From positions 22,249 through 86,248 of IMG/VR virus record IMGVR_UViG_3300031576_000022: a DNA stretch of 64,000 bases. One strand, 5' to 3'. Position numbers and translations under genes: made by a program. This DNA comes from a virus. Under the pieces are notes generated by a model that saw nothing but the letters and a program-made list of their open reading frames with translations, ran no database searches and was not told the DNA's origin. This document shows positions 2,098-63,542 of the stretch, piece after piece (within the stretch, counting starts at the first letter, position 1; every line of letters starts with the position of its first letter).

Positions 2098-2237
2098 GAC
2101 ACCACCATCGGTTTGGTTTCGTCATTTGCTGTGATAGATTGTGGTGAGCGGCAATCCTCATCATCGTCGTAATGCTGTTCAGGGTGGAGAGGCTAGGACC
2201 TTTCCCCTACCGGGCCTTCTAAGGTTTACGGACGACG

Positions 2238-4355
2238 ATGATCGCTTTGTTTACTCTTTTACGTAGATCGCAGCATGCTGCTGCTGCCGCTGATGATAGC
2301 GCGCAGGTTGTTTTGTTTGATCTATACATTGCGCTGCCAACTGAGACACAGGCTCGTCATGTAACCATGACTGAGAGCCCGTTGGAGGCATCCAGGCTAG
2401 TCGGAGAGCTTGGGCAGCCTGTGAGCAAGGATAAGCTCACCATGGCCAGTAAACAGCCTGAGATCGTACAGGCTGGCGCTGTGGGAGCGCGCGAACAAGG
2501 TCAATCTGTTTCTAGTGACAATACGAATACTCGTATCGAAATGATCGATACTGGTGAAGTCGAGATTGTTTCTGATGAAAATGATTCAAAAATCTTCAAT
2601 TTTTCTGGAAAGAAATTAATTGGAAGAATGATGATGACTCGTGATCCAGGGACGAGTCGTTTTAATATGACAATTGATAGTAATGGTGGTGATAATAGTA
2701 TCATTAGTGATAATGGTAATGGTAATGGTAATAATAATAATATTATAGATGATAAAAAACCAAAAGAAGATACAAAAAAAGATCCTGAACCTCTTTCTGT
2801 TGATGATTTTATTAGTCCTGAATTTGCTGAAGTTATTAATGAATTGATTAATCAAAATATACATATATCTGATGACGTAAAAGAACGTCTTACAGCTATT
2901 AGCCATCGTCTTTCTGATAAAAAACTTACAAATCGTGATGTTATTTTTGTTCTTAAATTTATTTCTGGCGGTGAAACCGCTGCATTGAATTCTATTGAAT
3001 CTACTACAGATACAATTTCTCTTTCTTTATGGGATACATCTGATAAAAAGAATGAAATTATATATCTTGACCAAGAAACAGGCGATCAATACAGGCTTGT
3101 TCCTTCTGAAAAAAATGATGGAACTTTTACTATTCCTCGTTTTCAGTTTATTTCAGAAGGTATGTATAATGATGAATTGTTTGATAGTAAAAAGGTTGCT
3201 AAAATTATTTCTAATTTTGCTGAATTGTCAAAAACTAAGATTCTTGATGTACCAGCAAAGATTGGACATCATAGGTCGCAGTCTTTACTTGGAAATACTG
3301 GTGAACTTGCCCATGGATGGGTTAACAATGTTTGGGGTGAAGAAACGGCAAATGGAACAAAAGGTTTTCTTTCTCTTGAAGGTATTCCGCAAACCCTTGC
3401 ATATTTGATTTCTAAAAAAGCATTGAAAAATCGTAGCGCTGAAATCTTTAAAAATGTCAATTACAATGGAAAGGATTATGGTCCTACCCTTAAGGCGATT
3501 TCGTTTCTTGGCGCGTCTACTCCTGCTGTTTTAGGAATGCAACCGGATGCGTCTGGCGCTGTTGTATTGAATTCGGCCGTGCAAATGTATACGCAGGAAG
3601 ACGGATCAAAAGTAATCATCGTAAAACCTAACGGGGGTAAGACTGTGAGCGATGCCAAGAAGACGATTGAAATTTCCGTTGATGATCTCAACAAACGTAT
3701 TTCTGATGCAGTTCAGGATGCTATGGAGAGGGCTAAGAAGATTGCTGAAGTTGATTCTAAGAAGATGAGTGATCAAGTTGTTGAACTTTCTGCAAAACTT
3801 AAAAACGAGCAAGATTCTCGTCGTAAGGATTTAGTTAAGTCAAATAAAGCAACAAATGAGTCTGAGTTTGATTCTCTTGTAAAGAATGGAAGTATTCTTC
3901 CTGTACAGAAGGATGATTTTATTTCTCTTTGCAAGATTATTGATGGTGTGAATGATATGGCTATGGGTCGTGATCTTAGCGATATGCTTTCTACTGTCAA
4001 ATGTGATAAAGATACTCTTGAGTTTTCTGTTGAAACAATGGAAGCTGACAAGAAGGTTGAGATTAAGGTTCCACTCAAGAATCTTTTTTTTCGGTTTGTT
4101 AAGGGGATCAAGCAGATTGATCTTTCTCGTCAGACGAATGATGGGAAAACCTCTACTAAAAATCCTGTCGATAAGAAGGTGCTTACAAAGAGCGATGAAA
4201 TTGATGAACTTACCCGTAAGTTGATGAAGGATAGCAACCTTCAATATGCTGAAGCTTTTATCAAGGCATATGATCTCAAGTTTGTTGGTGATGCAGGAAT
4301 TGATGCTGCAATTGATGGTGCTACCTCTGTTCCCTCTACTAGCGATTCGGAGTAA
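2238..4355 (+). CDS. Prohead protease-scaffold (Mu gpI-like); true start probably downstream of 2238
   Basis: IPRFQFISEGMY, PAKIGHH, AHGWVNNV, NRSAEI, GPTLKAISFLGASTPAVLGM, then a coiled-coil scaffold C-terminus; directly upstream of cement and capsid genes. Confidence 0.8.
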   Translation: MIALFTLLRRSQHAAAAADDSAQVVLFDLYIALPTETQARHVTMTESPLEASRLVGELGQPVSKDKLTMASKQPEIVQAGAVGAREQGQSVSSDNTNTRIEMIDTGEVEIVSDENDSKIFNFSGKKLIGRMMMTRDPGTSRFNMTIDSNGGDNSIISDNGNGNGNNNNIIDDKKPKEDTKKDPEPLSVDDFISPEFAEVINELINQNIHISDDVKERLTAISHRLSDKKLTNRDVIFVLKFISGGETAALNSIESTTDTISLSLWDTSDKKNEIIYLDQETGDQYRLVPSEKNDGTFTIPRFQFISEGMYNDELFDSKKVAKIISNFAELSKTKILDVPAKIGHHRSQSLLGNTGELAHGWVNNVWGEETANGTKGFLSLEGIPQTLAYLISKKALKNRSAEIFKNVNYNGKDYGPTLKAISFLGASTPAVLGMQPDASGAVVLNSAVQMYTQEDGSKVIIVKPNGGKTVSDAKKTIEISVDDLNKRISDAVQDAMERAKKIAEVDSKKMSDQVVELSAKLKNEQDSRRKDLVKSNKATNESEFDSLVKNGSILPVQKDDFISLCKIIDGVNDMAMGRDLSDMLSTVKCDKDTLEFSVETMEADKKVEIKVPLKNLFFRFVKGIKQIDLSRQTNDGKTSTKNPVDKKVLTKSDEIDELTRKLMKDSNLQYAEAFIKAYDLKFVGDAGIDAAIDGATSVPSTSDSE

Positions 4356-4430
4356 ACAACCGAAAACGCTAGCGTTCTCCCTACAGGGAAATCAAGGTAA
4401 AGATTAACAACAAAAACGAGGAACAGAGAA

Positions 4431-4814
4431 ATGACTACGACTTATGGAACGGCCCCTCGCAAAGCATTCGAAGCAATCTTTCAGTATGCATTCGTTAAGA
4501 TTCTTGGCACTACTGATGTCGAGATTCTTGATGGTGCCGTTGCAACTGATTTTGCGTGGGGTGTTTGTCAAACGCTTGCAGCGATTGGAGATCCAGTAGA
4601 AGTTGAGACACGCCGCGGTATGATTGGTCGCGCTGTCGCTTCTGCTGCGTTTGCTGCTGGTGTTCGCCTGAAGGTTGGTTCTGGTGCAGATCATGGCAAG
4701 GTTTTGACGCAAACGGCTGGTACGTTTACTGTAGCTACTGCACTTGAAACTGCTACTGCGGCTGGTGCAATTGTTCGTGTTGTGTATGTGTTTGAGACGA
4801 TCGCGCTTCCGTAA
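4431..4814 (+). CDS. Capsid cement/decoration protein (DUF2190-like)
   Basis: Ala/Gly-rich 127 aa with GVCQ..AAIGDPVEV, AGVRLKVGS..GK and ALETATAAGAIVRV; between protease and capsid. Confidence 0.8.
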   Translation: MTTTYGTAPRKAFEAIFQYAFVKILGTTDVEILDGAVATDFAWGVCQTLAAIGDPVEVETRRGMIGRAVASAAFAAGVRLKVGSGADHGKVLTQTAGTFTVATALETATAAGAIVRVVYVFETIALP

Positions 4815-4916
4815 TAATCGTGCTGTTGTAATAATCGGCCTACTAAAACGATCAATCCGTGTGACAGCGGAATTTGTATCAAGAAAAAAACAGAAACATA
4901 AACAGAGGATACGTAA

Positions 4917-5837: not shown

Positions 5838-5955
5838 TCTTAGTATATTGATCTAACATTGCTGTGCGCTGGTTGTAATAAGTGCGCGGCAATGTTAGAT
5901 TGGTATTAGTATTAAGCAAAATGGAATGGCAATAAAAAGATCCTGGTAGGGGAAA

Positions 5956-6492
5956 GTGGCTGATAAATATATCGATGTTATAACTGGCACCTTTTACCTT
6001 AAGAAAATCTTCTTGAGCATGGGTGTTGGAGTAGATAATCTTGATATTACGGCTGAAGAAATAGCATATTGTGAAACATGGGCTGAGAATCAAATTGATG
6101 GTTTGTTTGGTTTATCGTTTCCGTTATTTCCTGCAACACCATTGATAATTCGCGATATAGCACTTGCGCTAACTGCGTATAAAATCAGGCAGTTTCTTGT
6201 AACAGCTAATAGTCCAAATCTAGACGAACATACAAACGAAATTAGAGATGAAGCATATAGACTTATTCAAAGTATTATCCATGGCGATTTTTCGATTATT
6301 ATGCCAGATCTCAGTTATCATCCAAAATATCCTGGTCCGTCTGGTGGAGAAAGGTTTATGGTTCAGCCTGAATCATCTTTGAGGTTATTTTTTACAAATA
6401 TGGATAAAGAGTTTTATGCGATGCACCAAAAGGCTGAACCAGATGGGATTGAGCCAGCTTTTAGTGATCCCGAGTATGCAAACCAATCGTAA
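5956..6492 (+). CDS. Head-tail adaptor (Mu gp36/DUF1320-like)
   Basis: AENQIDG....SFPL.PATPLIIRDIALALTAY...EAYRLIQSI..G; position after capsid. Confidence 0.7.
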   Translation: MADKYIDVITGTFYLKKIFLSMGVGVDNLDITAEEIAYCETWAENQIDGLFGLSFPLFPATPLIIRDIALALTAYKIRQFLVTANSPNLDEHTNEIRDEAYRLIQSIIHGDFSIIMPDLSYHPKYPGPSGGERFMVQPESSLRLFFTNMDKEFYAMHQKAEPDGIEPAFSDPEYANQS

Positions 6493-9207: not shown

Positions 9208-9744
9208 GTGATCAAGAAGGACCTGCTTGAAGAGAAGTGTTTAGAGCTTTATCAATCTGGAAAGAAATTTAAGGTTAATAACGGTGCTGAAGTTCTAATT
9301 CCATCGCTTCCAATTGGCACTAAGGCAAGTCGTTTTCTTCGTATGCGCGATGCAATTGCAAAACCAGAATTTATTGATGGAAAAGATAGGGATTGTGATG
9401 GAAAAATTATTCAGGTAAAAAATCCTGAACATATTGATCTTACTACCGATGTTGGAATGAATGCAATTGCAAAAATGTTACATGAGATTATGTCTTTGAA
9501 TTATAATATTACTTCAGAAGAATGTGATGGACTTTTTTCAATGGCACATTTCGATCAAGTTATTACTTGGTTCTATACTGGTCAAGAAAATATTGGTGCA
9601 AGTATTGCCGTTAATTCTTCGGCGAATCGCCCTACACAGGCGCCGGAAATCGACGGCGCAGGAATGAGCACGAACAAGGCACAGGAAAACGGTACGACAA
9701 CCCGCTTGAACGTAGGCGTGAAAAATCAGGAGATATTGCGCTAA
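9208..9744 (+). CDS. Tail assembly chaperone (G-like)
   Basis: Between tail tube and tape measure; GTG start with GAGG RBS. Confidence 0.65.
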   Translation: MIKKDLLEEKCLELYQSGKKFKVNNGAEVLIPSLPIGTKASRFLRMRDAIAKPEFIDGKDRDCDGKIIQVKNPEHIDLTTDVGMNAIAKMLHEIMSLNYNITSEECDGLFSMAHFDQVITWFYTGQENIGASIAVNSSANRPTQAPEIDGAGMSTNKAQENGTTTRLNVGVKNQEILR

Positions 9745-9791
9745 GTGATGATTATCTAGAAAGGCATATTCGTTGGCTACGTGCAAACATA

Positions 9792-10028
9792 ATGGTCAAT
9801 AGAGATATTGAAAATATATGTTTGCATGAAGCTAATGATATTGTTATGGTTTTAGGCGGAACTTTCAGGGCTATTAGTATGGATGATTTTCAAGATTATT
9901 GTGATGGAGTAGTGAGAGATACGAAACATTTAGCGGGGAAGAAGGTTAGCGGTGTTAGTGGAGATGAAATTAGTTTGCCTGCTTTTATGCAAATGGTAAA
10001 AGGGATGTCTTTTGGTGGTAAAAAGTAA
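9792..10028 (+). CDS. Second tail assembly chaperone ORF (T-like, -1 frame)
   Basis: The -1 frame is open from 9615 to 10028 and overlaps the upstream gene. Confidence 0.55.
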   Translation: MVNRDIENICLHEANDIVMVLGGTFRAISMDDFQDYCDGVVRDTKHLAGKKVSGVSGDEISLPAFMQMVKGMSFGGKK

Positions 10029-10073
10029 AAGTAAATACAAGAAAAATTAGAAGTAAAAGAAAGGAGGTAAAAC

Positions 10074-13000
10074 ATGGCTGATATTAATGATAAATTGATT
10101 TTTAATCTTGAAGTTAATGCGGCAAGTTTTGCCTCTGAGTTGAAAAAAGCTGTAAATTCTGCTGTCAAAAATCTCACACCAACATTAATTGTTAAAGCTT
10201 CTGATATAAAATTGCAGGGTAAGGTCAAGGCTCTTGACCTGATTGACCTGACCGGATTTGCAGAAGCGCTGAAAGCCTCTATACAGTCCGCAGCGGGGAG
10301 TTTCTCCCCTACTGGGCAGGCTATCAGTAAGGCTATTGCCCAAGGTGGCGTGTTGTTACCTAGACCTTCTGTGCGGCCTGATGGGTTGACGGCTAAGGCT
10401 GTACCGGGTGGAAATGTTGTAGATATACCATTAATTGCTGCTAAAGAGCGTGCAGCATTATTGAAGGCAATTGATAAAGAAGTAAATGCATTTGCAAGAG
10501 CTGGTGAAAGAATTAGAGTTTCCGAATTTAAGCAAGCTGAAAAAGAAAAGGTTCAGGCAGCGAAAGATGCTGCAAATGAAAGGTCCGCTGCTGAATCTCG
10601 TTTTGTAAAAAGATTGCGTGGAATACCAGATACTACTGGTTTGGCTAGTGATTCAAGAACACCAATAAAAGCCTTTCCGCTTCCTGCAATTGTTCCTGGG
10701 TTAAATACTGCTACAACTAGTATTGCTGGACTTTCATCTATTATTGGTAATTTGAATGATTCTCTTACAAAAACTAGAACTATATCTCAATCATTATCTC
10801 AGATTTTATCGACGATTGGGGCACCAGCTATTGCTTTATTTGGTAAATTTAATATTTCTGTTCAAAATGTGTTGCGTTCATTTGGTACATTAATATCTCA
10901 ATCACTTAGGTTTGCTTCTATTTCATTTGGTGCAATAATTAGTGCATTTTCTAAAATAGCTGGTGCGGCAAGATCTGCATTAAGTCCTGTTTTATCATTA
11001 ACATCTGCTTTAGTTAGATCAACAGCAATCCTTACTGGATCTGGACTTTTATTTGGTGGTCCAGCATTTATTCCAGTTGCAACTGTTCGCGCTGCTTCTG
11101 TGGCGTTTGATGAGCTTAATTCATTTACAAAAGATGTTTCATTATCTGTTGTTCAGTTTAGTGATAAAATAGCTGCATTACAAGGTAGTGATCGTGTTGC
11201 ATTTATATCTGATAAGTTCAGAGAACTTTCTGCTAGTGTTCAAGATACTTCTACAAAGTTTGGATTAACATCAAAAGATATTGCTAGTGGATTATTTGAG
11301 ATTTTATCGGCTCAGGTTGGTATTTCATCTACCGCAGAAAGGCTTGAAGCGCTTAATGCATCGGCACGGGTTGCGGTTGGCGGTGCAACTGATGTTGCAT
11401 CAGCATTCAAGGGTCTTGTTGCAATTAATGCTGCTTTTAATACGTCGTTTGAGCAAGCATCTGATAAATTATTTGCTATTCAGAGATTGGGCATTGCTCC
11501 TGTTAAAGAGCTGGGTCCTCAGCTTGGTAGGGTGGCAAGTATTGCGTCTGAAGCTGGTGCAAATATTAATGAACTTGGTGCAGCTATTTCTACGATTACG
11601 TCTCGTGGTATTCCATTGGAGACAACATTTACAGGATTGCGTCAAGTGTTTGCTGAGCTTGCTTCTTCTGGTGGTGCTAGTATTCAAAAATTAGTGAAAG
11701 AAATACGAGAAACAAAAGGTATTGATATTACGTTTGATATTAATACATTACGTGCAGAAGGTGGTCTTAAGAGTTTCCTTGATAAATTGAATGAAATTAG
11801 AAGGATTGATCCTGGGTTAATTGGTAAGTTATTTCCTGATACTAGGTCTATTAGTGTAATTCTTCCTTTATTGGGAAGCGTTAGTAGATTTTCAAAAGAT
11901 TTAGTACAAGTAGCTGGTGCAAGGGGTGAGGCTGAAGCCGCAAGCGATGCGATTGTTAATACATTAGCTGGTTCTTATGATCGATTAAAGGCTGCCATTT
12001 CAAACAATGTTGTTGCTGGTGCAGATCATATAGCTTCTATTATCGGGTTAAAAGAAGTTATTGATGATATTATAAAAAGTTTGGATGATTTCCAGAAAAA
12101 AATTAGAGGAATTTCTTTTCTTGATTTGAAAAAATTTCTTGGTGATCTTGTAACAACCAAAGATGGAATTTCTTCAATTGTTGAGTTTTTGTCTAGAAAA
12201 TTTGGTGAGATTTCTGGTGTTCTATTAAAACAAACCGCTCCAATTTTACGTATTGGAGCGGTTCTTGGGCTTACTCTTGGAAAGATTATAGGTGATGCTA
12301 TATTTGGACAGATACAAGAATCAATTAGAAAATCATTGCCAAAAGTGGTTGCATTAACTGATATATTTGATGATTTTGGAACTGAAGGAAAATCATTAGA
12401 AAGTCGCAGGATAGGTCCAAAAAAAGATGTTAGCATTGCTAGTTCAATAAATGATTCACTAAAAGAATCATTTAAACTGATTGGTAATCTTGAGGCTTTT
12501 TCTGCTGGTATTGATGTAATATTTTCTGAAATGGAAGGTGTTGGTAAGAATTTTTCTAAATCGATTTTAGGTGCAGGTCTTACTCTTGAAAAACAATTTT
12601 CTAAATTAACCGTTTCTATTGATGCAGGTAGGATAGTTGATGATGCTAAATCATTGCGTAATGTTCTTGAACAAGAAATTGAGGGGATAAAGCCATTTGA
12701 TCCTACTATAATAAATTCATTTGTTAATGTTATTCAAAAACTTCAAGCTACTAATATATCTAAATCTGTTCTTGGTGGTATTGATGATAAAAATATTAAT
12801 GATTTATTTAAATCAATAGGTGGACTTGGAAGTGCAACAATAGAATTAAAGAAAGCATTTATAGATCTTGGCGCCGATATAAAGATTCCAGGTATTGGTG
12901 AAAGTGTTGAGGTGATTGATGAACAAATTAAAAAATTAAGGGTTGGTATTGCTTTCCTTGAAAGAAAAGGATTTTCTGATGCCGCTAAGAATCTTTCTAA

Positions 13001-51024: not shown

Positions 51025-51372
51025 TTACTCCGCGAGCCTCATTTGGTAATCGTGACAGTAAACCGTGTATTCCTTATATTCAAATTTAACGTAGTAAATA
51101 GTTTCACGCCCATTGCTTGACGAATTGATAACGGTTCCTATTTTGTCTTTTAATCCAATATCGAATGTGGCAGGATTGACCAGTGTTACCTTGTCATTGT
51201 GGTTAAACTGGTTCGCTGATAGTTCGTGTCGTTCAGGGAATCTGCATGGAGGGTCGTAGTATGGAAGTCTGCAATAATCACAAAGATTGTCCGCGTGGCA
51301 TTTTTAGCGGCGACGAAGTTCTGTTGTAAGTTCATCGAATGAGTATTCGTCAAGGTCGCGTGGATATGTCAT
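51025..51372 (-). pseudogene. Gene interrupted by one in-frame TAA (codon 23)
   Basis: MTYPRDLDEYSFDELTTELRRR*KCHADNLCDYCRLPYYDPPCRFPERH...YCHDYQMRLAE; fills the gap between neighbours. Confidence 0.65.
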
Positions 51373-51491
51373 GGATTTATACTCTACTATTCTTGTTGAT
51401 GTTTTGCCTATGCATTATTGTTATTCATATTTTATGGATTTCTCGACTAGATCGATCTTGTTTGTATCTAACTAGCATGGATGAGTATCCT

Positions 51492-51992: not shown

Positions 51993-52543
51993 TTGATTGT
52001 CCTTTAGGATTGCAGGCCAGTAAGGTAAATCGTATTAGTATTCCATGTGAATTTAATTTCATCGTTTAGTAGGTATGTGCCATTGCGCGTAGTAACACTA
52101 TTATCTACTCTTGTTACGATAATGAGTGGGAATCTGCGGCTGATAATGAGTGGGAATCTGTTGCTGACAGTATTGCACCTGTATCTCCTATACTTATATT
52201 TAATGACGATTGATTTGATACCATAAGATTTGGCTGTCTCTATGTCGCCAAATTTGATTCTGATTTTCTTGGTAGGCATTTCAATATTGCCTCTGTTAGA
52301 GTGATGTTAGCACAGATTTACAGATATCCCTTAATCTATCAAATTCGTAGCATGGAGCTACGAAATACGTGTAGCCATCTGTGTCAATTTTATCGCCCAT
52401 CCTTTCTCTGCCCGTTTCGTCACCACCGAACGCAAATCGCGAAAACCTGCTACCGGCGGACACCTAACGGTCCTCCACGATTGTGCACCACGGACACCGC
52501 AGGGCCGCGCCGCCCTGCATCGTCACCGTCATGTTTTGGCTGC

Positions 52544-54028
52544 TCATCGTTCTACCCTCCTTTTTAGTAATCTTGCGATCGATGTCGCAAGTAATTCAGA
52601 CATATCTCTACTGAAGTCTGTTGCACCGCTGGCATGATGACAGCACTCTTCAACCGCAGTAATCATCAACGATTCGTTATCGCCTCCAGCATAATCGGTA
52701 TGGTAGTAGCAAGTTTGTTTGGTCGGATCATAGTATCCGAACACGTTCTTACCGCATTCTGTTGGTTGATAAAAACATTCGCATCCAGGCTTGTTCTTAT
52801 TCTTGTGTAGATTTTCTTGTATTAGAAAATCCCATACGATATCGTGAGCCTTTTGCACGGAAATCGTTACTGGACTAAACGTGCGCCCCTTTTGGTCATT
52901 ATCGGATAGGATTGTTTTTTCTGTCTTAAGATCAAACGTGCGAGCTGCTTGTGCCCAACAATTCGGCAGGACGATCGGATTGTAGCCTTTTCCCTTAATC
53001 ATCCCTTCAATCAGGTTGTTAGCGGACTTTTCCGTGAAGATTCCGTTGTCACCAAGTATGGCATTGCTCGCTTGCTGCCAATTTTCTTTGCGTTGTTCGC
53101 TGTTGACCGCACCATCATCACCGTAATCGTACATAATGGAATCCATGCTAGATTCCCAGTATTCATTCTTCTCTCCGTTTTCGTTTGTGCCCGGGTTGCA
53201 AATATGGAATAACGCTTCTGTCAAAATATCAACAGGAGCGTTACGCAATGCTAGCGCGCAAAAGTGCTTGGCGCGGAAGTCGTCAAATGTGCGTGATTCG
53301 TTCAGTTCAGGGTCTATATTGTAGTCGAAGATGGAGTCTTTGCCATGTTGGATTTGACGGACAAGCACACCGCGACGATAGATGTTTGCGCGACCTGAAC
53401 GTCCCTGTACTTTACGTAGAATTTTTTCTCGTTTACGCAATACATCTGGATTAGAGAAATGAAGGAAGAACATTCCAATATTCCGATGAAACATAACAAT
53501 ATCGTCGGTAATGCGAATGAAAATTCGCGTTACACCTTGCTTTGCACGAACCTGATTATCTTCAACCTCACAGATGCTTACTCCGGTGAAATCTCCTGTC
53601 GCATCAATTTGACCATCGATTGCGTTAGAGATGAATTCTCGTAGGGCTAAGGCGCATGTCTTCCAATCAGTTCTTCCGTAGTCGAGAGTGAATGACATAT
53701 CCTCTGTTCGGTTTACTGTTGATCCATCTTGGAGCTTTCCTGTGAGTTTACAGCAAACCTTGTGGTGTTCGGATTCTACGCCAGTTGACGAACGAATGTT
53801 GATTGGCTTAGTAAAGAATTCGAGTTTGGTGGAACCACAAAAGATGATTGGTGGATTGCTTTGACGAAGGAGGATTCCGAGACTGTGCTTAAAACCACTA
53901 CCAAATTGGCCGATTTGTAGTGGATGGATTGAATCCTTTTTTGTCGTTGCTCCAAATAAGAGAAATAGACTGATATCTCCGACTCCAATATTTTCGATCT
54001 TAAGATAAGGCATTTTACTTTTCTCCAT
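52544..54028 (-). CDS. Circularly permuted GHKL ATPase with C-terminal zincin-like motif
   Basis: IENIGVG and IGQFGSGFK precede ALREFISNAID; C-terminal VFGYY...EECCHHASGATDFSR. Confidence 0.75.
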   Translation of the reverse strand: MEKSKMPYLKIENIGVGDISLFLLFGATTKKDSIHPLQIGQFGSGFKHSLGILLRQSNPPIIFCGSTKLEFFTKPINIRSSTGVESEHHKVCCKLTGKLQDGSTVNRTEDMSFTLDYGRTDWKTCALALREFISNAIDGQIDATGDFTGVSICEVEDNQVRAKQGVTRIFIRITDDIVMFHRNIGMFFLHFSNPDVLRKREKILRKVQGRSGRANIYRRGVLVRQIQHGKDSIFDYNIDPELNESRTFDDFRAKHFCALALRNAPVDILTEALFHICNPGTNENGEKNEYWESSMDSIMYDYGDDGAVNSEQRKENWQQASNAILGDNGIFTEKSANNLIEGMIKGKGYNPIVLPNCWAQAARTFDLKTEKTILSDNDQKGRTFSPVTISVQKAHDIVWDFLIQENLHKNKNKPGCECFYQPTECGKNVFGYYDPTKQTCYYHTDYAGGDNESLMITAVEECCHHASGATDFSRDMSELLATSIARLLKRRVER

Positions 54029-54052
54029 GAAGGATGATTGTAGAAATCCTGG

Positions 54053-54697
54053 TCACGGACGCACCTCCGGTATCGGCGTAGCTGGCACGCGGCACGACAC
54101 GAGCCAATCGTGGAGCGCGTAGAGGTCGTCCGAGGTGACGGGCGGGTCCCTCTCCGGCGCGTCGTCCGAGTGTAGCTCGCGGTCGTTCTCGGCGGCGTTG
54201 TCCGCGGACTCCGTGCAGTAGCGCTCCAGCTCGGCGCCGTCCAGGTCGCGCAGCTCGTCTAGCTCGCCAGCGGCGTCGGTCCAGTTGTAGGCCGCAAAGA
54301 GCGGTTCGGGCAGCTTCGGTAGGGTCTGCATATCAGGGACTCCTGAAGGTGTCGGTGAAGTTTCCTCTTCAAAGATGAAAGGATTAGACCTGACACCTTT
54401 CACGTATTGCGCGATTGTACAGTTATACATTAGATCGATTTCCTCAAAATCATGTACATATTTTGTTGTACTGTATTTGATTTGGATAATGTTAGGAACA
54501 AGTCCGAGACGATGAGCCGCACGAATACGATGCGTACCTTCAAGTGCAATCCATGAGTATGCGTATTGTTTTGTGTATTTGTTTCGGTAGTTGTAGTGAA
54601 CAGCTCGCAAGGTAGGACGACCAAGAAGTTTCATTTGTACGATGACATCTTCAAGGTGCTCTTTATCGTAGTGGTTATGCGGTGGGATTATGATCAT
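54053..54697 (-). CDS. ParB/Srx-like domain fused in frame to a GC-rich domain with its own RBS and ATG (54331)
   Basis: WIALEGTHRIRAAHRLG; AGGAG before ATG 54331; C-terminal part paralogous to 56867..57088. Confidence 0.65.
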   Translation of the reverse strand: MIIIPPHNHYDKEHLEDVIVQMKLLGRPTLRAVHYNYRNKYTKQYAYSWIALEGTHRIRAAHRLGLVPNIIQIKYSTTKYVHDFEEIDLMYNCTIAQYVKGVRSNPFIFEEETSPTPSGVPDMQTLPKLPEPLFAAYNWTDAAGELDELRDLDGAELERYCTESADNAAENDRELHSDDAPERDPPVTSDDLYALHDWLVSCRVPATPIPEVRP

Positions 54698-54725
54698 GGT
54701 TCGTGAAGGCCATTGCTTATAGTCC

Positions 54726-57700
54726 CTAGTCTTCGTTATGGTGTGGTTTAATCTTGATTTCGTATACCTCAATCTCGCTTTCGCGGAGTAATGGCATTGC
54801 TTTTAATAGTAAATCTTTAAGCTTATTTGGTCTTGAAAGATTGATTTCAAGTTCTTTTGCAATTTCAATCCTGAATATCCAAATATCTTTGTCCATTGTA
54901 TTCCTATTAATTGTCAAGAGTGATACGCAATGCCCACTGCGTATTTAATTTCACGAAAGGTTGCACGATACCATCTGTTGAAGCAACAACCATGAAGAAG
55001 TTCGTGAATACCGTAGATTGTTGGACACAATTGTGCTTCACTGTAATCAGGTGGTTCATTTCTTGTTAAGAAGTTTCCATCAGGATCTTCAATGAGTAGC
55101 ATGTAGTCCCAATCATCCATGCGAACATCTTGGTCCCAAAATGATTGAATTTCATCTCTGGTAATATCGTCATATCTGCTAATGTATAAAATCTTAAGTG
55201 GTTGTTTTAATGATTGGCTCATTGGTATATCCTTCTGGTTTGTATGCAATACGCATTAGGCTGACTTGTTCGTATGTGTATTTAGGTGGTCGTGCTTTTG
55301 AAAAGATTACATCGTTTGATTTGAGATATTTCATTTGAGAGATACAGGCTTGATGGGATGAATGAATGGATACAATGTCAGATTGTAAGGTAATCGCGTA
55401 TTGTTTACGCCGGATGATCTTCCCGTTTTTGTTCTTGATGACGTTTGTTGCTAATGCGATCATTACGTTCAATTTCCTCGTAAAGTTTCTCTAGATTTAT
55501 CTGTTCAAGTGCATTTAATGTAGCACCAAGTATGCCATCTGTTGCTGATAGCATATTTTTGCATTTCTCTGTGATGATAGACTGGCGAAGTTCAGGTAAA
55601 AATGAAGTCCAAAATCTTACAAGGCAGAATACTTTGACGATTTCGCTTGTTGATTTTTTGAATTCTCCGCGAACATCGAAATGGATGTTTTCGATTTTCA
55701 TTACTATTAGGATACTTCTAGTATGACTGAATCAAGATTCCTGATATCTACATTTTGATTTTCAAAATCTTGATTATGCACTAAGAGTTGAATCTTGTGG
55801 TATTCAGCGCAGATTTGCGTGATTAGGACGATTGGTGAATAATGATGCCCAAGTTCTGAGTGATTACTGTCGTAAAGAATCGCCTTAATATGTAATCCTG
55901 ATCTATTGTCTTCGAGAAATTCCTGGAATTGATCTGCAATACTCTCGATGAGTCTGATTTTATCATATGGTGATTTGCTTGGCATATTTATGTCCTATTT
56001 TAGTGTTTATTAAAGACTATCGTAGATACTTTATACCGTGCGGCCCGCAACCTTCAATTGGATTTACTGCGTAGATATTACCCCGTGGGATTCTTTTAGG
56101 TTCCGGCGCTTTCCATCCAGCGGCTTTCAGAATATCTCCTGTTGCCTTGTCGATAAAGCAAAAGACTGATCGTCCATTGTTGTGTGACTCATTGCGAATA
56201 ATCTTGACATTGCGAGTGCCATATTCAGCGGTGAATGTTGGTGGAGTGAGATTCGAGTAATTGATTCGGAAGTATTCGTTGACGAAATCTTGGTAGATTG
56301 AAAGGAACTTAGCCAGTGCTAAGTCAAAAGCTTGATCTTCTATGAGTGTTGCTATCGCAGATTTTTTACACGTATGTCCGAGTCGGATAATTTCATCGCA
56401 GTGTGGGCAACGATCGGCTTCTTCAAGAGTAAGATCTGGCATTACAATTCTCTTTCAATTGACTTGATAAAAGATTTAGCGTCTGGCTTTTCGTAGAATG
56501 CAGCAATTTCAGTGTTGCGTCTACCTGTTTCTCGGACAATATACCATCCACAGGGGAATTTATTGTATAGATTGCCGCTAGCTGGCTTGTGTGGATCTTC
56601 GTAGTTATAGAAGATTTCGTATTCTGTTTTCATTTGAAGATTTCATTGATCTGTTTATTTGCAATTCTTTCGTTATCAGCTAGCGCTACCCTTGTATCGT
56701 ACAAGATATATTCGTAATGTCTTCCACGGATCAACCACGTAATTAGCATCCTAAGCTTATGGTCATTTTTGTTTTTGAGAAAGCCGATGATTTCATCGAT
56801 GTTATAGTTGTTGTAATTGATACTGTCGAGACTTGCGTCTGATTCGATTAGCATTTGTATTGATCCTTATTTGATTGATTGAAGCCAATGATATAGACGA
56901 TATATATCATTTTCTGTTATATCAATATTATGTGAATGTGCATTTTCGCTAGCATCTTTACAGTATTGTTTCGCGCTATCTTCATTCATAGAAGAAAGTA
57001 TGTGAATTTCTCCTGCTGCATCAACCCAGTTATATGCTGAAAATAGATTAAGAGGAAGCTCCACCTTTTTTGACATTGCAATATCCATTAGTGGTCCTTG
57101 TTTGATTTCCAGTAGAACCTAAGTGAGATGGTCCAGAAGATGAACGTAAGTCGTAATTCTCGCATATGGTTGAACCCAGGCTCATTGTATGTAGAGCCTA
57201 GGCAACCACCTTTGGTTGTGAATGAGAATCCGTATTCTGGCATGTATTCTTTGATTGATTCAAATATGTACCTCATTGATTTAGTTCGATAATCAGGCAT
57301 TCAACTTTAAGTTCGTCAACTAGGCTATCTTTAACGATGAAATCTGCAATGATATTTCTACAGATAACATCAATTAGTTTTTGACCGAGAGTCGGAAGCT
57401 TTTGTACGGCGCGGCACGCTTTGAACATGCAGCGCTTTTCGAATTTAGTCATTGCTTAATGCTCCATTGCTTGAGAAAGTAGAATATGGTTGTTATTTAT
57501 TCTACCTAAAATTTTAGCCATATTGCCGGTTCGATTTTTACTGTATTAATCATGTCAATTACATCTTTCATATCACAAATATCACTTTTACAAATAACCT
57601 TGTGATCTCCGTAGCATGAGATATTAATGTGTTCATCTACGATAATAAAGACTATCTCGGCTTCATTTAGATCATCTACGCCATCTTCGTATCCACGAAC

Positions 57701-57769
57701 AACGATGCGAACATTACCAGCTTTTGCTTGAATGGTTTTCAACGTTTTGATCAATTCGCTGACTAGCAT
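54726..57769 (-). other. Array of about 12 small early-type hypothetical genes (including 56017..56442 and 56867..57088)
   Basis: Consecutive overlapping ORFs; 56017..56442 has RSVFCFIDKATGDILKAAGWKAP..RGNI, a common phage pattern. Confidence 0.55.
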
Positions 57770-57887
57770 GATTTTTTGCCCTCACCCCTCACACCTCGTT
57801 TTGCTTCGCAAAACATTCGGAGCCTTCTTTCCCTACTGGGCTACTCCGTGGGATCTTTTGTCGGCCTTGTTTTTAGTATAAAAGTGA

Positions 57888-57960
57888 TGCCGATTACAGG
57901 GCTTGAACCTGTAACATCCAGCTTACAGGGCTGGCGCTCTGCCAATTGAGCTAAATCGGC
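57888..57960 (-). tRNA. tRNA-Thr (TGT) with atypical C33
   Basis: GCCGATT/AATCGGC, GCTC-AATTGGCA-GAGC, CCAGC-CCTGTAA-GCTGG, ACAGG-TTCAAGC-CCTGT. Confidence 0.88.
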
Positions 57961-58053
57961 TTTTGTATGTCATTGTGATGAGTTTTGTGGTATAATTGTG
58001 GGAAGATATTCTAGAATGGTTCGTTATAATAATGGTCAATCTTATTGATTGTT

Positions 58054-58742
58054 TTATCCGCTTGCTAGCTTAATCCCATCGCGAATTGCTTTTTGTGTAG
58101 CTGCATTCCACTTATACAATCGCGCATCCATATTCAGGTTTGCAAGGGCGCATGACGTATCTGGATTTGAAGTTAATGTTATCAGGAAGTTTTCAACTGC
58201 AATTTTCTTGACTTTCGCTCGCGAAGCGAGCTTGTCAATTTCGACCATCGTCAGTTCGCGCATTACTAGAGTCCTCCGATTGTTCCGTAATTGTATTGTT
58301 CAATACATTTGCTAACTAACGATATCGTCAATGATTTGCAATTACTTTTTGTGCTAATCGTATCTCTAGCCCAGTATCCTACTGTCCTGTCTAAATTATC
58401 TCCTGTAGCAAAGAAAAGTTCAAACGATCCGTCGTCAAGAATTTGCAGTTTGACATCAATAGCAAATCCTGGAGCTAGCAGATTCCTGTATGCCAATAGT
58501 TGTTGATGAATCCCATTGTTATCGATATTCAATTGGTTGTTCATTTTCCTCCAGTCTGGAAAGGTAAGCCGTCTTGGATAGTCTGGAAAGGTAAGCTGTC
58601 TTGGATGGTGCTTAATATTGATCCTAACACATTCAAGTTCTTTGATAAGCCAATTCATATATGCTTTACTAAATTCATCCTTTTCGGATTTAGGTATGAT
58701 TTTCTGATGATCCGTTGATTCTACGTTTTTGTCTGGAATCAT
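58054..58742 (-). other. Two hypothetical genes (58054..58263, 58266..58742)
   Basis: GGAGG RBS before 58263; short internal repeat PR.LTFPD twice in the second. Confidence 0.5.
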
Positions 58743-58826
58743 AGCGATTTTTCCGCTTCTGATTTTCCTGGACTTTTAGTCCTCGAAAACGATCGTATCA
58801 AAATCGTTTTGGAAGTCAAATACAGC

Positions 58827-59357
58827 TTAACTGTAACCATCACCGTAACCGTCACCGGAACCGGAACCGTAACCGGAACCGTAACCGTCACCGGAACCGT
58901 AACCGTCACCGTAACCGTAACCGGAACCGTAACCGGAACCGGAACCGTAACCGGAACCGTAACCGTAACCGTCACCGTAACCGTAACCGGAACCGTAACC
59001 GGAACCGGAACCGTAACCGGAACCGTAACCATCACCGGAACCGGAACCGTCATCGTAACCGTAACCGTCACCGTAACCGTAACCGGAACCGTAACCGGAA
59101 CCGTAACCGGAACCGGAACCGTAACCGGAACCGTAACCGGAACCGTAACCGGAACCGTAACCGGAACCGTAACCGGAACCGGAACCGTAACCGGAACCGT
59201 AACCGGAACCGGAACCGGTTCCGGTTGGTAATACATACGAGCTTCTTAAGATTTTCGAACTACATTTTTTCCCTATTTCCTCAAGGAAATCCGCTCTTAC
59301 TAATCTTGCATTTTTACCTTTAATTTTCAATAATAGCTTATATGTATCTCTTACCAC
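58827..59357 (-). CDS. Gly/Tyr/Ser-rich (GYGSG) repeat protein
   Basis: About 130 residues of G-X dipeptides after a basic N-terminus; coupled to 59351..59611. Confidence 0.75.
   Translation of the reverse strand: MVRDTYKLLLKIKGKNARLVRADFLEEIGKKCSSKILRSSYVLPTGTGSGSGYGSGYGSGSGYGSGYGSGYGSGYGSGYGSGSGYGSGYGSGYGYGDGYGYDDGSGSGDGYGSGYGSGSGYGSGYGYGDGYGYGSGYGSGSGYGSGYGYGDGYGSGDGYGSGYGSGSGDGYGDGYS
58833..59225. repeat. Hexamer-based tandem repeat (GTAACC/GGAACC/GTCACC)
   Basis: Directly visible; coding repeat. Confidence 0.95.
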
Positions 59358-59611
59358 ATTGGATCTAATGTTTCTGCAATCCAGATTGCATTGATTGGAT
59401 TGATTCTGATGTATCCATTTACCCCAACATTATTTGTTACCGCATTTTTCGCAAGACCTGAATGAGATGCTGTTCCGTGGTCGCGTCCAGCATTGGTAAT
59501 GAATCTTGCGCTTGTTAACCTCCAATCAAAGTCGTCTTCGATTGACTCTAGTTTTCCGATAATTACCCAGCCAAACGGCAGGATGCAATACAGCCAGTCG
59601 CCGATTTTCAT
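59351..59611 (-). CDS. Small beta-barrel protein of the type usually upstream of GYGDG-repeat genes
   Basis: GWVIIGKL.....LTSARFI....G..G.....G; GGAG RBS. Confidence 0.55.
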   Translation of the reverse strand: MKIGDWLYCILPFGWVIIGKLESIEDDFDWRLTSARFITNAGRDHGTASHSGLAKNAVTNNVGVNGYIRINPINAIWIAETLDPMW

Positions 59612-59647
59612 TTTTTATAGCTCCATGTAGTATCGGATTTCCTTTAT

Positions 59648-62144
59648 CTAGAATGGATTTCTTCCGTAGATTTCAATCAGAATCGGGAAAAGATCTCGCC
59701 TGATTTCTCCAGCATCTACAGTCCAGTCGGTATACTCAAATTCAATCTCATTTCCATCGTCATCTTCACCTAATTCGATTGCAGTATACTTGTAATCCTC
59801 GATGCTATCCCATACCTTTTCGATGATCTTCATAGCCTCATCAACGGAATAAGGTTCGCGACCATGTAAGGATGAATGTCAATTCCAGCAAGAAATTCGA
59901 CCAACAGGGCAATTGCATGGTCTTTGTTTTTTGCGCTTGAAACAAGGTGAACGGTTGTCATGCTGCATGACAATCTGTCTCTGTTTTTTCCTGTAATTTC
60001 GCCTCCGCGATGGAATCTGATTTGCGGACAGTGGCCATCATAAGGATGATAGGTTTCGATGTAGTATGTGACCATTAGTTATCGCTCCCGCATTCGTTGT
60101 CAATGATGGTAGTAATCCACTTCATTACTGAGAAATTCTGACGATACTCAGTGTTTTCAACAAATCCCCCGTCTCGGTATAGCTCGTAAAACCTACCACC
60201 TTCGTACAGTGGTGCCGGTTTGTATGTTACATCGTATAAAATCCAAGTGGATTTATATTTGTCGATTTGACAGATTTCCTTGGAAGATATATAGCAAGGA
60301 TGGTCGGCGCAAGGATGGTCTAGATTGCTGTCCATTTATTTATCCTTGTGTTTCTTTACGTTACGAAGTAGCGCACATAATAGTAGCGCGAAAGCCTTTC
60401 AAATCTTTCGCGCTATGGACTACGTTTCAATTATCAGCCTAGTGAAAATCGGACCATAAACTCTCCCAGGGTTTGAAGCTAGGAAAAACGCTCGCAACGA
60501 AATCGTTTTGTTTGCTATCTAGTGTTATCTAGTCGTGCTTGACGTAGTGGCAAGTAGTCTGCCACGCCAAAAGACGCGCTCGATCTGACAGGGCTTGCAA
60601 AGCGCTACGCTGCGAAACATCGCGCTTGCGTCGGTCAATCATGCGATCAAGCATACGATCAATCGCTGGATCGGGTCGCGGCGGATTCTGCGAGCAAAAA
60701 GCAATTGGATCAAACAACTGCGGATCATTGGTATAGATATGACTGTCGAACATGGTAAGAACTCCTAAAAGAAAATCCGCCATGACAGTATGGCGGATTG
60801 GTTATTAGCTAATCGGTGGGCCTTCTTCGCAAAACTTTGAACCTTCCCCTTACTAGGCCAGCGCAAAGCGTGTTAGCCTAGCTATCTGCCCATGTTACAA
60901 ATACTACTTGATTCATTCCATGCGGGCGAATCTCGATCATATCGCCCATATCACAAACACTTGCCCTTATACCAGACAATCCGCATAGTGCTTTAGCGCG
61001 TCGGACTAGTGCGAGCCTCGACCCGTTATGGATTGTGTATCTGTCTACCCAACAGTAGTTGGCTTCACCACCAAAAGTATCGGTATGCTCTACATTGTAA
61101 ATTGTACTATCTCCACATACATTGTTTCGCGGTAGCACGTCTGCTCCACAATGGCCATTTCCCCGTAATTTCCATGGTATATAATTCATCAAGTGCTTCG
61201 CGTTGTGTATTGAATGAGATAGATCCTTGGGGGATTCCTTTTTTAGTCATTTTGACCAGTTTTTCATTGTGATTTCTATTGACAAGAACTAGCCCAGTAT
61301 CGTCAATCAATATCCATGTATTATACATTTTAGTCACCCCTCTTCAATCTCACATAGAGATTGTTTTCGTCGTCGCACTCTACTTCTAACCCTTCACACT
61401 TGGCGCTATCGACAATATTTCCTGAATCCTCCATGTTGATTTTAGTTACATACCACGACCTGCCTTCCGATTCGTCGTAGTAGTCATCGAATTTCAGGTC
61501 GAAAATACTAGCTAAATGCTTGATCGCATTATCCTCTTGCTCGTCCCATTCCTCATTTTCCAGTGTAGAGAAATCACTCCCGTCTAGAATGGGATAGCTC
61601 TCTATACTATCTTCGATTTCTTTAGCGATTCTTTCACAATCTGAACCGGGCTTGACAATCAAAATCTCAAACCAGCCACAAGCCCAGTGCCCGAAACGAT
61701 GATTTTCGTAGCAATCATTATCGGACGGATCTTGTGATACAGAAAGCATTTGTTCCGCCATGCGGAAATTGCTACGATCAAGTGCTTCGCTATTACGATT
61801 TTGTCCGACTGGTACGACTAGCCAATCTTGTTGGTCGTGTAGGAAAGACCCGGGATGATCGAATTCCGTTGGGCGATAGTCGCTATATTTTTGCATTGTT
61901 ATTCAGATCCATTGATAAAGAGTACGTGATCCGTCGTAGGGTTTACAGATATGTCTGTTTCTAGGTCTTTCAAGTATTCGGCGATTTGTTCTGGATCGCA
62001 CCAATCCCTATTATCATTGATCCATTTACCAAAATTCAATCTAACTAAAATCCTGGCACATTCAATGCTGCCAGCAATAGCAATAACATATCCTTTTGCC
62101 CAATTTTTGAGCATACTGCTTCGCCACATATACATGGTTGCCAT
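59648..62144 (-). other. Early-region hypothetical genes (59648..59833, 59830..60075, 60075..60335, 60529..60753, 60878..61192, 61107..61337, 61330..61896, 61899..62144)
   Basis: Packed - strand ORFs; TDTFGGEANYCWV and SNF...RFGHWACGW are recurrent phage patterns. Confidence 0.55.
60774..60799 (-). terminator. Rho-independent terminator
   Basis: AATCCGCCAT-N6-ATGGCGGATT followed by TTCTTTT on the - strand. Confidence 0.7.
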
Positions 62145-62148: not shown

Positions 62149-62616
62149 CTATCTATCCGTGTTTATGTGCTTGACTTTCCATCCCATCGGGAGTTTCGCA
62201 TACATTTCGTACAGATTCTTTTCCATGTTCCTGATAGTGTGCTCGGGAACATTGTGCGTTTTCCGTGCAAGGCAAGTCTCGACGCTGGCATTGCAACAAA
62301 CAATGAGATGATCGTAGTCATATGCTTGTGCCGCGAGAATATACGGGGAAACGTTGTGGAGTTTCGACCCGCAGTTATCGACGATGATAGTATCAATTAC
62401 TTCATTGATGTTTCTGATATAAGATCTGAAGCATTTACCGTGGCACTCACCAAGCATGGTTGGGTTGAACTTATAATTTCCGTTACTGTCTATCATATAA
62501 TAATCTGATGATACGCAAATCGAGTCTAGATTATTTCGCATAAGGTATAGCGAATAGTAACTTTTGCCGCTGCCTGGTAAACCGGACATGATAACAACAG
62601 TCGGGCGATCAAACAT
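62149..62616 (-). CDS. P-loop kinase, polynucleotide kinase / N4BP2-like
   Basis: IMSGLPGSGKS, SSDYY, IIVDN, CLARK.HNVP..TI..M; GGGAG RBS before ATG 62616. Confidence 0.85.
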   Translation of the reverse strand: MFDRPTVVIMSGLPGSGKSYYSLYLMRNNLDSICVSSDYYMIDSNGNYKFNPTMLGECHGKCFRSYIRNINEVIDTIIVDNCGSKLHNVSPYILAAQAYDYDHLIVCCNASVETCLARKTHNVPEHTIRNMEKNLYEMYAKLPMGWKVKHINTDR

Positions 62617-62639
62617 TGCGTGTCTCCCTGATATGTAAT

Positions 62640-62927
62640 CAGTAAATGACAGCGCCGACACTTGTTATGTTGTCGGCGCTGTATTAGCTAGTATTGGTGA
62701 TATGCCATGATTCTAACATGGTCAACCTGCTAAGTCGCACCTAGCAGGTTGTTTCAGATAAAGCCTCAATACTGAGGAACCGCGTGCAACAGTATATCTC
62801 GACCGTATCTCATATCCGTGGCGAACTGCACCGGTCCTAGCCTTTGCTCGCGATGTATTCGCACTCCCATTTACTGTAAAGCTACCAGTAAATATTAGCG
62901 CCGAATCTTGTTATGTATTCGGCGCTA
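62640..62927. repeat. Two copies of a hairpin with identical 10-nt loop CTTGTTATGT
   Basis: 62649-62682 (12-bp stem) and 62896-62927 (11-bp stem), both preceded by CAGTAAAT. Confidence 0.85.
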
Positions 62928-62945
62928 TAGCGTTGACGCTATGTG

Positions 62946-63542
62946 TTACTCGTCATAATCGTGATTGTCAAGATGCTCTTGCAACGCATCCCTTACAATT
63001 GCGAACACTTCGCGCAATTCAGTATCCATGCCAAGCTTGATCCGCGTGTCCATGTTCGAGGATTCCATGCCGTACTCTTTTACTGCATCATCGCAATAAT
63101 ACATACGATCATTTCTGCTAGAAAGCCAAGCAAGATGCTCGTGATAGTGAATGTATGCGTTGTCAAGCCATTCTCCGAAACTCTCGTCACTATCCACGCT
63201 TTCATCTGAAAGGCTTGTGAGAGCATCGCCGATGAATTCATATCGCCAGTCGTCTGGCATCATGTCGCCATGAGCATCATGGCACATATCAATGATCCAC
63301 TGTGGGCAATCGTCTGCATGAATGAAGATACGGCCGATCCCAGGCGTTTCAAGGTCACCACGCTTGAAATGCGTGAGAACTTCCGCAGCAAGTTCACTGA
63401 TATTGGTAGCCTTGATTTTACGATCCACAGTAAACACTAGCCCTTCCCCTACTGGGAATGCAGTTTGATGATCACACAAAATGATAACAGCGTCGCGATA
63501 TTTCACGCGACGCTGCTCCTTTAGTATAACAGGTATCATCAA
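62946..63542 (-). CDS. Acidic protein, possible Ocr-like DNA mimic (start probably downstream)
   Basis: D/E-rich; PDDWRY; LDNAYIHYHEHLAWLSS resembles Ocr ADNAVPHYYADIFSVMAS. Confidence 0.45.
   Translation of the reverse strand: MMIPVILKEQRRVKYRDAVIILCDHQTAFPVGEGLVFTVDRKIKATNISELAAEVLTHFKRGDLETPGIGRIFIHADDCPQWIIDMCHDAHGDMMPDDWRYEFIGDALTSLSDESVDSDESFGEWLDNAYIHYHEHLAWLSSRNDRMYYCDDAVKEYGMESSNMDTRIKLGMDTELREVFAIVRDALQEHLDNHDYDE

Follow-up and report, generated by a model that had tools for sequence, protein, structure and literature searches.

A genome-wide, strand-biased ~20-bp DNA motif in an uncultured tailed phage resembles the nick-associated motifs of other phages

Phage DNA with single-strand interruptions at specific sites has been described since the 1960s (T5), and the published accounts on which we draw here give neither an accepted function nor an identified enzyme for them. 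In the phiKMV group, one strand is nicked at the motif 5'-CGACxxxxxCCTA/CTCCGG-3' (PMC3517423), and the nicks of phikF77 are intergenic (PMC3384331). For LUZ19, CCTACTCCGG is reported as the only detectable intergenic motif, associated with nicks and unrelated to transcript abundance (PMC3604761). The word WACTRTGAC is described as conserved in 61 phages (PMC11780129), and the nick consensus of T5 and BF23 is quoted as R/GCGCRGG (PMC3517423). Here we describe a motif of ~20 bp that recurs along a stretch of 64,000 nucleotides, hereafter the window, which comprises bases 22249-86248 of the 86,248-bp IMG/VR virus record IMGVR_UViG_3300031576_000022 (classed as linear and ~80% complete). The record belongs to a tailed phage. 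The motif is a real, conserved and polar DNA signal. By analogy with the systems above, we tentatively propose that a DNA enzyme with strand specificity acts on its copies; localized nicking offers the best precedent, and we give this reading somewhat less than an even chance.

The motif occurs far more often than expected by chance. With at most one mismatch, the word TTYYCCCTACYRGG is found 17 times in the window (14 times on the + strand and three times on the - strand), whereas 100 dinucleotide shuffles gave a mean of 0.10 matches and none reached 17. The whole record holds 17 forward and four reverse matches, and the same word read backwards gave 0 and 0. Refining a weight matrix on the copies yields 23 + and seven - sites in the record, with scores of 18.5-31.9 bits; 18 + and five - sites lie inside the window. 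The sequence logo, RRNCYTTTYCCCTACYGGGM, is asymmetric and non-palindromic, carries information across ~20 bp, and reads R R N C Y T T T Y C C C T A C Y G G G M from position -9 to +10. An additional A is present at -15 in 22 of the 30 copies, and the flanks beyond show no conservation. Core coordinates below refer to the first C of CCCTAC in window numbering, unless stated otherwise.

A preliminary description of this DNA, made from the letters alone, had reported over 20 copies of the motif. All 18 + strand places listed there contain a copy. Four of the five - strand places do so as well (cores at 5951, 22828, 26543 and 37289); the fifth, at 43831, is a broken look-alike (TTTCCCTCTACCATTG) with one inserted base, which fails the matrix, and a - strand copy at 33402 is absent from that list. 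The sites given as 36401 and 10302 were called identical, which is true for the 14-mer TCTCCCCTACTGGG.

Constraint on the motif acts at the level of the DNA. The 15 copies within genes compare with a mean of 1.32 and a maximum of 3 in 60 synonymous-codon shuffles, which preserve the encoded proteins. The other 15 copies lie outside open reading frames (ORFs) of at least 60 amino acids (aa), in sequence that makes up only 10.3% of the record (p=5e-8), and several of them take up most of an 18-43-nt gap between genes. As previously noted, the motif encodes FSPTG in both the tape measure (SFSPTGQ) and the primase (IFSPTGT). We compared the record of this phage (G000) with those of two relatives from IMG/VR (G001 and G002); all three records are incomplete. 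Around the tape-measure copy the DNA of G000 and G002 is locally similar, but the encoded residues are SFSPTG in the former and LFSSLLGG in the latter, because compensating indels that flank the copy place it in different frames; the constraint must therefore be on the DNA. The frame difference, the excess outside ORFs and an orientation unrelated to that of the genes (see below) support the view that the motif is neither a ribosome-binding site nor a by-product of coding.

The copies are strongly biased towards one strand. The split between + and - is 23:7 in the record (binomial p=0.005), 13:2 outside ORFs and 10:5 inside them, and the figure outside ORFs becomes 15:2 (p=0.002) if two ORFs of questionable reality, 76 and 79 aa long, are left out of account. 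The + orientation, previously described as kept throughout, thus holds for 23 of the 30 copies and not for the other seven. Relative to the local genes, a manual tally from the gene map gives ~16 sense and ~14 antisense copies. Five + copies lie in a - strand replication block, the genes of which have family support, and antisense copies there include those at 20910, 22386, 23351 and 29937; four - copies lie in + strand genes.

This independence from gene direction bears on the reading of the motif as a transcription or translation signal, whether a promoter for a phage sigma factor, a terminator, a ribosome-binding site or an RNA hairpin. Such a role might be suggested by the LUZ19 record, in which the similar sites were formerly annotated as 'phage-specific promoter', by the presence of a sigma-70-family gene in the motif-bearing G000 and G002 (it was not found in G001), and by three gaps between - strand genes in which GGGGAA or AAGGAA, read on the complementary strand, precedes a start codon by 6-25 nt. 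However, ~14 of the 30 copies are antisense, five of them in the well-supported - strand replication block, and at least 13 copies are inside ORFs. The logo shows no T-run after the motif, none of the nine terminator-like sites in 15000-34999 overlaps any of the nine copies there, promoter-like sites are not enriched, and a -35-like region is not conserved in G000. Since the orientation ignores gene direction, these roles are excluded on that ground, and with the missing T-run and the lack of terminator overlap we set them aside as hardly credible.

The motif is instead aligned with an asymmetry of the whole chromosome. Of 16 bins of 4 kb, 12 have more G than C on the + strand; the skew of the other four is only -0.04 to -0.06, and three of these lie in the - gene block. 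The GC skew is ~+0.2 in regions of + genes and ~0 in the - block, and the + strand is also T-rich. Because the + strand is G-rich along almost the whole record, the orientation of the motif follows a chromosome-wide strand bias. The + copies are also spaced more evenly than simulated random points (coefficient of variation 0.57 against 0.94, P=0.003; 0.62, P=0.005, for all copies), with a median distance of 3.1 kb and a range of 1.0-9.7 kb.

In some copies the purine arm can pair with the TTYCCC tract, for instance GGGGAG TTT CTCCCC at 10307 and GGGGA TCATT TCCCC at 23351. Pairing with an upstream arm is possible in only ~8 of the 30 copies, the mean DNA folding energy is -1.4 kcal/mol (shuffles, -0.86), and folding is slightly more favourable for the complementary strand. 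An upstream hairpin is thus not a general property, and we treat the site as a sequence and not as a hairpin.

Strand bias and spacing together raise the question of a replication-linked signal. With the + strand as the lagging-strand template, the motif could act in single-stranded form, either in priming or primosome loading, or in a Chi-like protection of rolling-circle tails from a helicase-nuclease. A G- and T-rich + strand is what one-way forks would leave, the motif is co-oriented with it (23:7), the even median spacing of 3.1 kb is similar in magnitude to the length of Okazaki fragments, and the phage has its own zinc-finger primase-helicase, RecD/Dda-like helicase, Gam-like protein and RecA-like ATPase. 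The length of the site argues against this idea: primases recognize 3-5 nt, and Chi and KOPS are host signals of 5-8 nt that are frequent inside genes, whereas 20 bp are constrained here. The motif is like Chi and KOPS in being a polar signal aligned with the skew (~77% of copies on the G-rich strand), but differs in being phage-specific and located outside ORFs beyond chance, so that the Chi/KOPS-like identity is not supported in the form put forward in the preliminary description. The site also forms no stable hairpin, and the direction of replication is deduced from the skew alone. We consider a replication-linked signal improbable.

Conservation was examined in relatives reached through profiles of the portal and head proteins (several records). 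A megablast search of 20 kb against GenBank phages gave no match, and an IMG/VR single-protein search with the major head protein gave no near relative. Homologues of the portal with 61-64% identity lie on contigs of 10, 39 and 132 kb. G002 (77 kb, GC content 48%) has a portal protein that is 45% and a head protein that is 47% identical to those of G000, and the proteins common to the two phages are 24-56% identical. It carries a related motif, TTCTTCCCTACNGGGGGARG. The word YYCCCTACYRRGM (at most one mismatch) occurs eight times forward and four times reverse (control 1 and 2), and CTACAGGGG seven times where 0.13 is expected. An iterated matrix finds 22 sites in G002 (14 +, 8 -) of the form GAGyTnAATTTCTTCCCTACNGGGGGARG; it gives 45 scoring positions compared with 0-7 in 20 shuffles, so the weakest of these sites are doubtful. 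The G002 motif is more palindromic than that of G000 (CTTCCCC TACA GGGGAAG).

The motif was not found in G001 (portal 45% identical; 0 forward and three reverse matches against 3 and 1 in the control), and 80 loci of head-protein relatives (1.01 Mb) are not enriched (13 core matches; reversed control, 30). The contig with the closest head protein (66%; 9.8 kb, GC content 58%) has four YCCTACNRGG, all intragenic and none in gaps. Exact scans of IMG/VR found TTYCCCCTACTGGGC in 32 and TTTCCCCTACNGGGG in 77 stretches, with one match per listed stretch; among the matches listed, only the contig of G002 recurs (three stretches). A looser rescan found at least two core copies in seven of the 77 stretches, three being those of G002 itself. 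A metagenome scan returned only the 9.8-kb contig already in IMG/VR, the head-protein profile found no prophage relatives in bacterial genomes, and a RecD profile led to G002 again and nothing further. Among the matches listed in a literature search with four 10-mers of the motif, none concerned phage genome motifs. Being present in G002 and not found in the other relatives, the motif is restricted to a lineage yet conserved between two phages, with co-evolving flanks.

Other strand-biased words occur in the relatives. In G001, which lacks the CCCTAC motif, the different motif CCCCGCCCC is found 13 times on the + strand and once on the - strand, exclusively in the last 15 kb (record positions 59531-74514), and its reverse complement GGGGCGGGG directly precedes the ATG of a - strand gene in several cases. 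G002 has a second strand-biased word, GATTTACGA (six +, one -; seven against 0.44 expected), the flanks of which are not conserved.

We hypothesize that a sequence- and strand-specific DNA-acting protein recognizes the ~20-bp asymmetric site RRNCYTTTY-CCCTAC-YGGGM, and that the phage would keep this site in short intergenic gaps, mainly on one strand of the chromosome, whatever the direction of transcription. Its most likely action would be site-specific nicking of that strand, roughly every 3-4 kb, like the interruptions in the packaged DNA of phiKMV-like, LUZ24/tf-like and T5-like phages. Protein binding, cutting of the DNA, and the strand and position of the cut are all points that we infer. 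A long, asymmetric and information-rich site is what an enzyme or a specific binder might be expected to recognize, and a conserved and asymmetric consensus that is independent of transcription is what a nick site would show. Of the 15 copies outside ORFs, 13 are on the + strand. From the preliminary description, the notion of a polar, sequence-specific DNA site is retained; the stoperator-like and Chi/KOPS-like identities are not.

The location of some copies is consistent with this hypothesis. The LUZ19 record has four sites of the form CGACC-N4-CCTACTCCGG(G/C)2, three of which start 1-2 nt past a stop codon. The window copies at 15533 and 4379 begin 3-10 nt past a stop, like the LUZ19 sites, and a copy located outside the window (TGACCCTTTCCCTACTGAGCC, record position 16289) closely resembles one of the LUZ19 sites (CGACCCTTCCCTACTCCGGCC).

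Several observations speak against nicking. The nicks of phiKMV-like phages and T5 are reported in one strand only (PMC3384331), and the tf group has 14 sites, TACT/RTGMC, all on one strand and clustered (PMC3517423). Here seven of the 30 copies occupy the opposite strand, at comparable scores. The motif matches the phiKMV consensus only in part: its spacer has one base more, and its 3' half reads YGGGM where phiKMV has CTCCGG. Our matrix ranks the four LUZ19 sites 16th to 8604th of ~87,000 positions. No protein was found in common with LUZ19 (best tblastn E=0.002, ~150 queries), searches of the ~80% complete record revealed no DNA ligase domain, and the sole HNH endonuclease is present only in G000 and absent from the motif-bearing G002. 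To our knowledge, nick sites have not been described as evenly spaced, and those of tf are clustered. The public runs that contain the window DNA, two runs from a single cave-metagenome sample, consist of assembled contigs only, where strand ends cannot show. A single contig of 72.6 kb covers the stretch at a depth of ~22 and is variant-free at the motif sites, which says nothing on nicks.

Genes that travel with the motif are candidates for the acting protein. Found in G000 and G002, and not in G001, are the sigma factor, a methyltransferase, the RecD-like, AAA_24 and RNase H-like proteins, and small proteins of 196, 173, 141 (44534-44959) and 78 aa (9792-10028). The 196- and 173-aa proteins are well conserved between G000 and G002; a search for relatives in the PDB returned none, and the Atlas gave weak structural leads for both, the 173-aa protein looking head-associated (DUF6582). 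Two candidates were rejected. The HNH endonuclease is confined to G000, and the ParB-like protein, considered as a binder, occurs in G000 and G001 but not in G002 and thus does not track the motif.

A protein might also bind the ~30 sites without cutting them. The motif would then be a multi-copy operator or genome-organising site for a repressor, a global regulator, or a ParB/KorB-like or nucleoid-like protein, which would silence, insulate or compact the chromosome. Precedents are the stoperators of cluster A mycobacteriophages, the dispersed C1 operators of P1, the KorB operators of RK2 and, in cluster O mycobacteriophages, dyad repeats of 17 bp. The long, specific site with many dispersed copies, their even spacing and their excess outside ORFs are all in agreement with this idea, as are the nearly palindromic motif of G002, usual for sites of dimeric binders, and the ParB-like protein and sigma-70-family factor encoded in the record. 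Plain binding, however, does not explain the strand bias (23:7; 13:2 outside ORFs), many copies fill within-operon gaps of 18-43 nt, which are too small for a promoter, and the ParB-like gene is present in the motif-less G001 and absent from the motif-bearing G002, all records being incomplete. Cluster A stoperators, 13-14 bp long and bound by the immunity repressor, likewise comprise asymmetric sites by the tens, most of which occupy short gaps between the genes of an operon, but they are oriented with transcription. The motif ignores transcription, which speaks against the stoperator-like identity suggested earlier; no repressor family was recognised among the 59 ORFs scanned of ~150 mapped, many ORFs being without a family. 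We regard binding without cutting as unlikely.

Finally, the copies might be a miniature mobile or recombination element, that is, a nano-MITE (miniature inverted-repeat transposable element) or REP-like (repetitive extragenic palindrome) insert of 25-35 bp, or the target of a site-specific recombinase that rearranges the genome. Several of the gaps that hold a copy barely exceed the motif, as after an insertion, copies within large ORFs (tape measure, primase) are in frame, and in some copies the reverse complement reads GTAG followed by a small palindrome, as in REP elements. The latter are also short, intergenic and multi-copy, but the motif has no consistent hairpin or stable palindrome and is strongly biased in strand. 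No Y1/RAYT (IS200-like) transposase was found in the ~80% complete record (PF01797 without a match at E<=1). There is no target-site duplication, and conservation is confined to the 20 bp plus the A at -15. A selfish insert would not explain the strand bias and the even spacing, and the tape-measure copy is present in both phages. 

The replication/recombination block 18784-35198, with the genes for the ERCC4, RecD-like, AAA_24 and 513-, 810- and 825-aa proteins, has the opposite orientation in G002, where it is on the + strand and follows the tail genes. Both edges of the inverted block are occupied by a copy (18763 on the left, 35368 on the right), which might be taken in favour of a recombination site. 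The two edge copies share the same orientation, though, and would not be left in this way by a simple two-site inversion. With 30 copies in 86 kb, occupancy of both junctions is not improbable and may be due to chance. Taking both sides together, we judge a mobile or recombination element quite improbable.

The individual copies in the window are found in the following positions. An inserted IS1-like DDE transposase ORF (1273-2097, +; PF03400, E=1.6e-7) separates a cluster of - strand genes from the protease/scaffold gene; it contains no copy, as the preliminary description had said of the insertion sequence. The copy 2196-2215 (+, core 2205, GGACCTTTCCCCTACCGGGC, 31.9 bits) lies just past its 3' end, in the gap before the protease/scaffold start at 2238. 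Copy 4370-4389 (+, core 4379, 19.4 bits) begins 10 nt past the stop of a 705-aa gene (4355), and 5941-5960 (-, core 5951, 23.5 bits) is in the gap behind the major head gene, which ends at 5837. The tape-measure ORF contains 10298-10317 (+, core 10307, 30.8 bits) at aa 78 (SFSPTG). Copy 15524-15543 (+, core 15533, 31.0 bits) takes up nearly the whole 43-nt gap between a gene end at 15516 and a start at 15560, and 18754-18773 (+, core 18763, 25.0 bits) marks the junction of the + strand tail module with the - strand replication block.

Within the replication block, 20901-20920 (+, core 20910, 28.9 bits) occupies the 37-nt gap between the RNase H-like start (20899) and the RecD-like stop (20937) and is antisense to the two genes. 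Copies 22377-22396 (+, core 22386, 25.3 bits) and 22818-22837 (-, core 22828, 20.3 bits) lie within the - strand RecD/Dda-like helicase gene, and 23342-23361 (+, core 23351, 27.9 bits) is located 13 nt past the start of this gene, antisense to the operon. Copy 26533-26552 (-, core 26543, 30.7 bits) lies within a 413-aa - strand gene, 29928-29947 (+, core 29937, 30.2 bits) in the gap between two - genes (513-aa start at 29924, next end at 29995), and 33392-33411 (-, core 33402, 22.8 bits) within the - strand gene for the 825-aa protein. The 513-, 810- and 825-aa proteins of this region (28383-35198, -) are kept in both G001 and G002, and none of them falls into a Pfam or PHROG family.

Copy 35359-35378 (+, core 35368, 28.2 bits) sits within the doubtful 79-aa ORF, where the 825-aa gene of the - block (start 35198) and the + strand primase operon diverge. 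The 1113-aa primase-helicase ORF holds 36397-36416 (+, core 36406, 26.1 bits) at aa 169 (IFSPTG) and 37279-37298 (-, core 37289, 22.5 bits) at aa 464. A 205-aa + ORF contains 40450-40469 (+, core 40459, 23.7 bits), whereas 42377-42396 (+, core 42386, 25.9 bits) spans the 18-nt gap between two + genes (stop 42373, start 42392). Copy 45303-45322 (+, core 45312, 29.2 bits) is inside a 190-aa - strand ORF. Between - genes, 48126-48145 (+, core 48135, 18.5 bits) has a C-rich arm that pairs downstream (ATTCTCC TAC GGAGAAT). The last three copies are 57822-57841 (+, core 57831, 27.7 bits) in the divergent intergenic region 57769-58049, 60839-60858 (+, core 60848, 22.7 bits) between - strand genes (60783 and 60878), and 63438-63457 (+, core 63447, 28.6 bits) within a 198-aa - ORF of uncertain reality.

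The longest interval without a copy, 9.7 kb, lies between the cores at 48135 and 57831. This motif-free stretch (48146-57821) holds - strand ORFs of 494 and 239 aa without a Pfam family. The 4-kb bins of 48001-60000 have a GC content of 0.37-0.43, above the 0.32-0.36 of those of 12001-48000, and the stretch may be a foreign insert. Further downstream, a 176-aa ORF (58827-59357, -) consists in its C-terminal two thirds of a Gly-Tyr-Gly-Ser repeat (GSGYGSGYGSGSGYG...), encoded by a tandem array of 6/12/18-bp units (58828-59218, ~32 copies, 88% matching).

Family matches in the record comprise the major head protein, protease/scaffold, Mu-like portal, large terminase, RecD/Dda-like helicase, sigma-70-family factor, MazG, ParB-like protein, HNH endonuclease (24930-25403, -), ERCC4, RNase H-like, AAA_24 and Gam-like proteins, a RecA-like ATPase, an N6/N4 DNA methyltransferase and the IS1-like transposase. 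Large products are the tape measure (1285 aa) and the zinc-finger primase-helicase (1113 aa). The sigma-70-family factor is encoded outside the window (record positions 9395-10222, -) and has regions 1.2, 2 and 4; a homologue was detected in G002 and none in G001. Family scans of the record ORFs returned no family for many large ORFs, and a DNA polymerase was not recognised among the ORFs scanned.

If the copies are nicked, this uncultured cave-metagenome siphophage lineage, unrelated to the T5, phiKMV and LUZ24 groups, would carry ~23 evenly spaced interruptions in one strand, one per 3-4 kb, a prospect that we find possible though doubtful. The number of sites would be far larger than in any described nicked phage. 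The CCTAC(T) core held in common with the phiKMV nick site would then suggest a common nicking activity, or else a general, polar and evenly spaced 'punctuation' of phage chromosomes, tied to the direction of replication or packaging. A new, unrelated lineage would offer comparative leverage on the nick question, through the genes that travel with the motif and through what its polarity tracks. This leverage derives from the many even, strand-biased copies, the overlap with the phiKMV nick core and the co-evolution in two distant relatives. If the copies are not nicked, the motif would still be a genome-wide polar signal that merits study.

Among the nicked phages, T5 and BF23 are comparable in being large siphoviruses with one-strand interruptions, but, as far as the consulted accounts go, they have a different and shorter consensus, with major and minor classes of nicks. 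The LUZ24/tf motif is described as strand-specific, with 9-14 copies per genome, contains TACT, and is conserved across relatives of little nucleotide identity. In those descriptions it is 9 bp long, strictly on one strand and clustered in one half of the genome, whereas the motif described here is ~20 bp long and evenly spread. With the phiKMV-like motif the likeness extends to a length of ~20 bp, an asymmetric sequence, the CCTAC(T) core, a GAC(C) upstream of a pyrimidine-rich spacer, and intergenic, strand-restricted positions after stop codons that are unrelated to transcript levels. The lineages are unrelated and the numbers differ, with four sites on one strand of a 43-kb genome there and 30 per 86 kb, split 23:7, here; the nicks are proven there, while the present sites are known from their sequence. 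Among documented systems, the closest analogue of the motif is provided by the intergenic motifs associated with nicks in phiKMV-like and LUZ24-like phages, which were not among the readings of the preliminary description.

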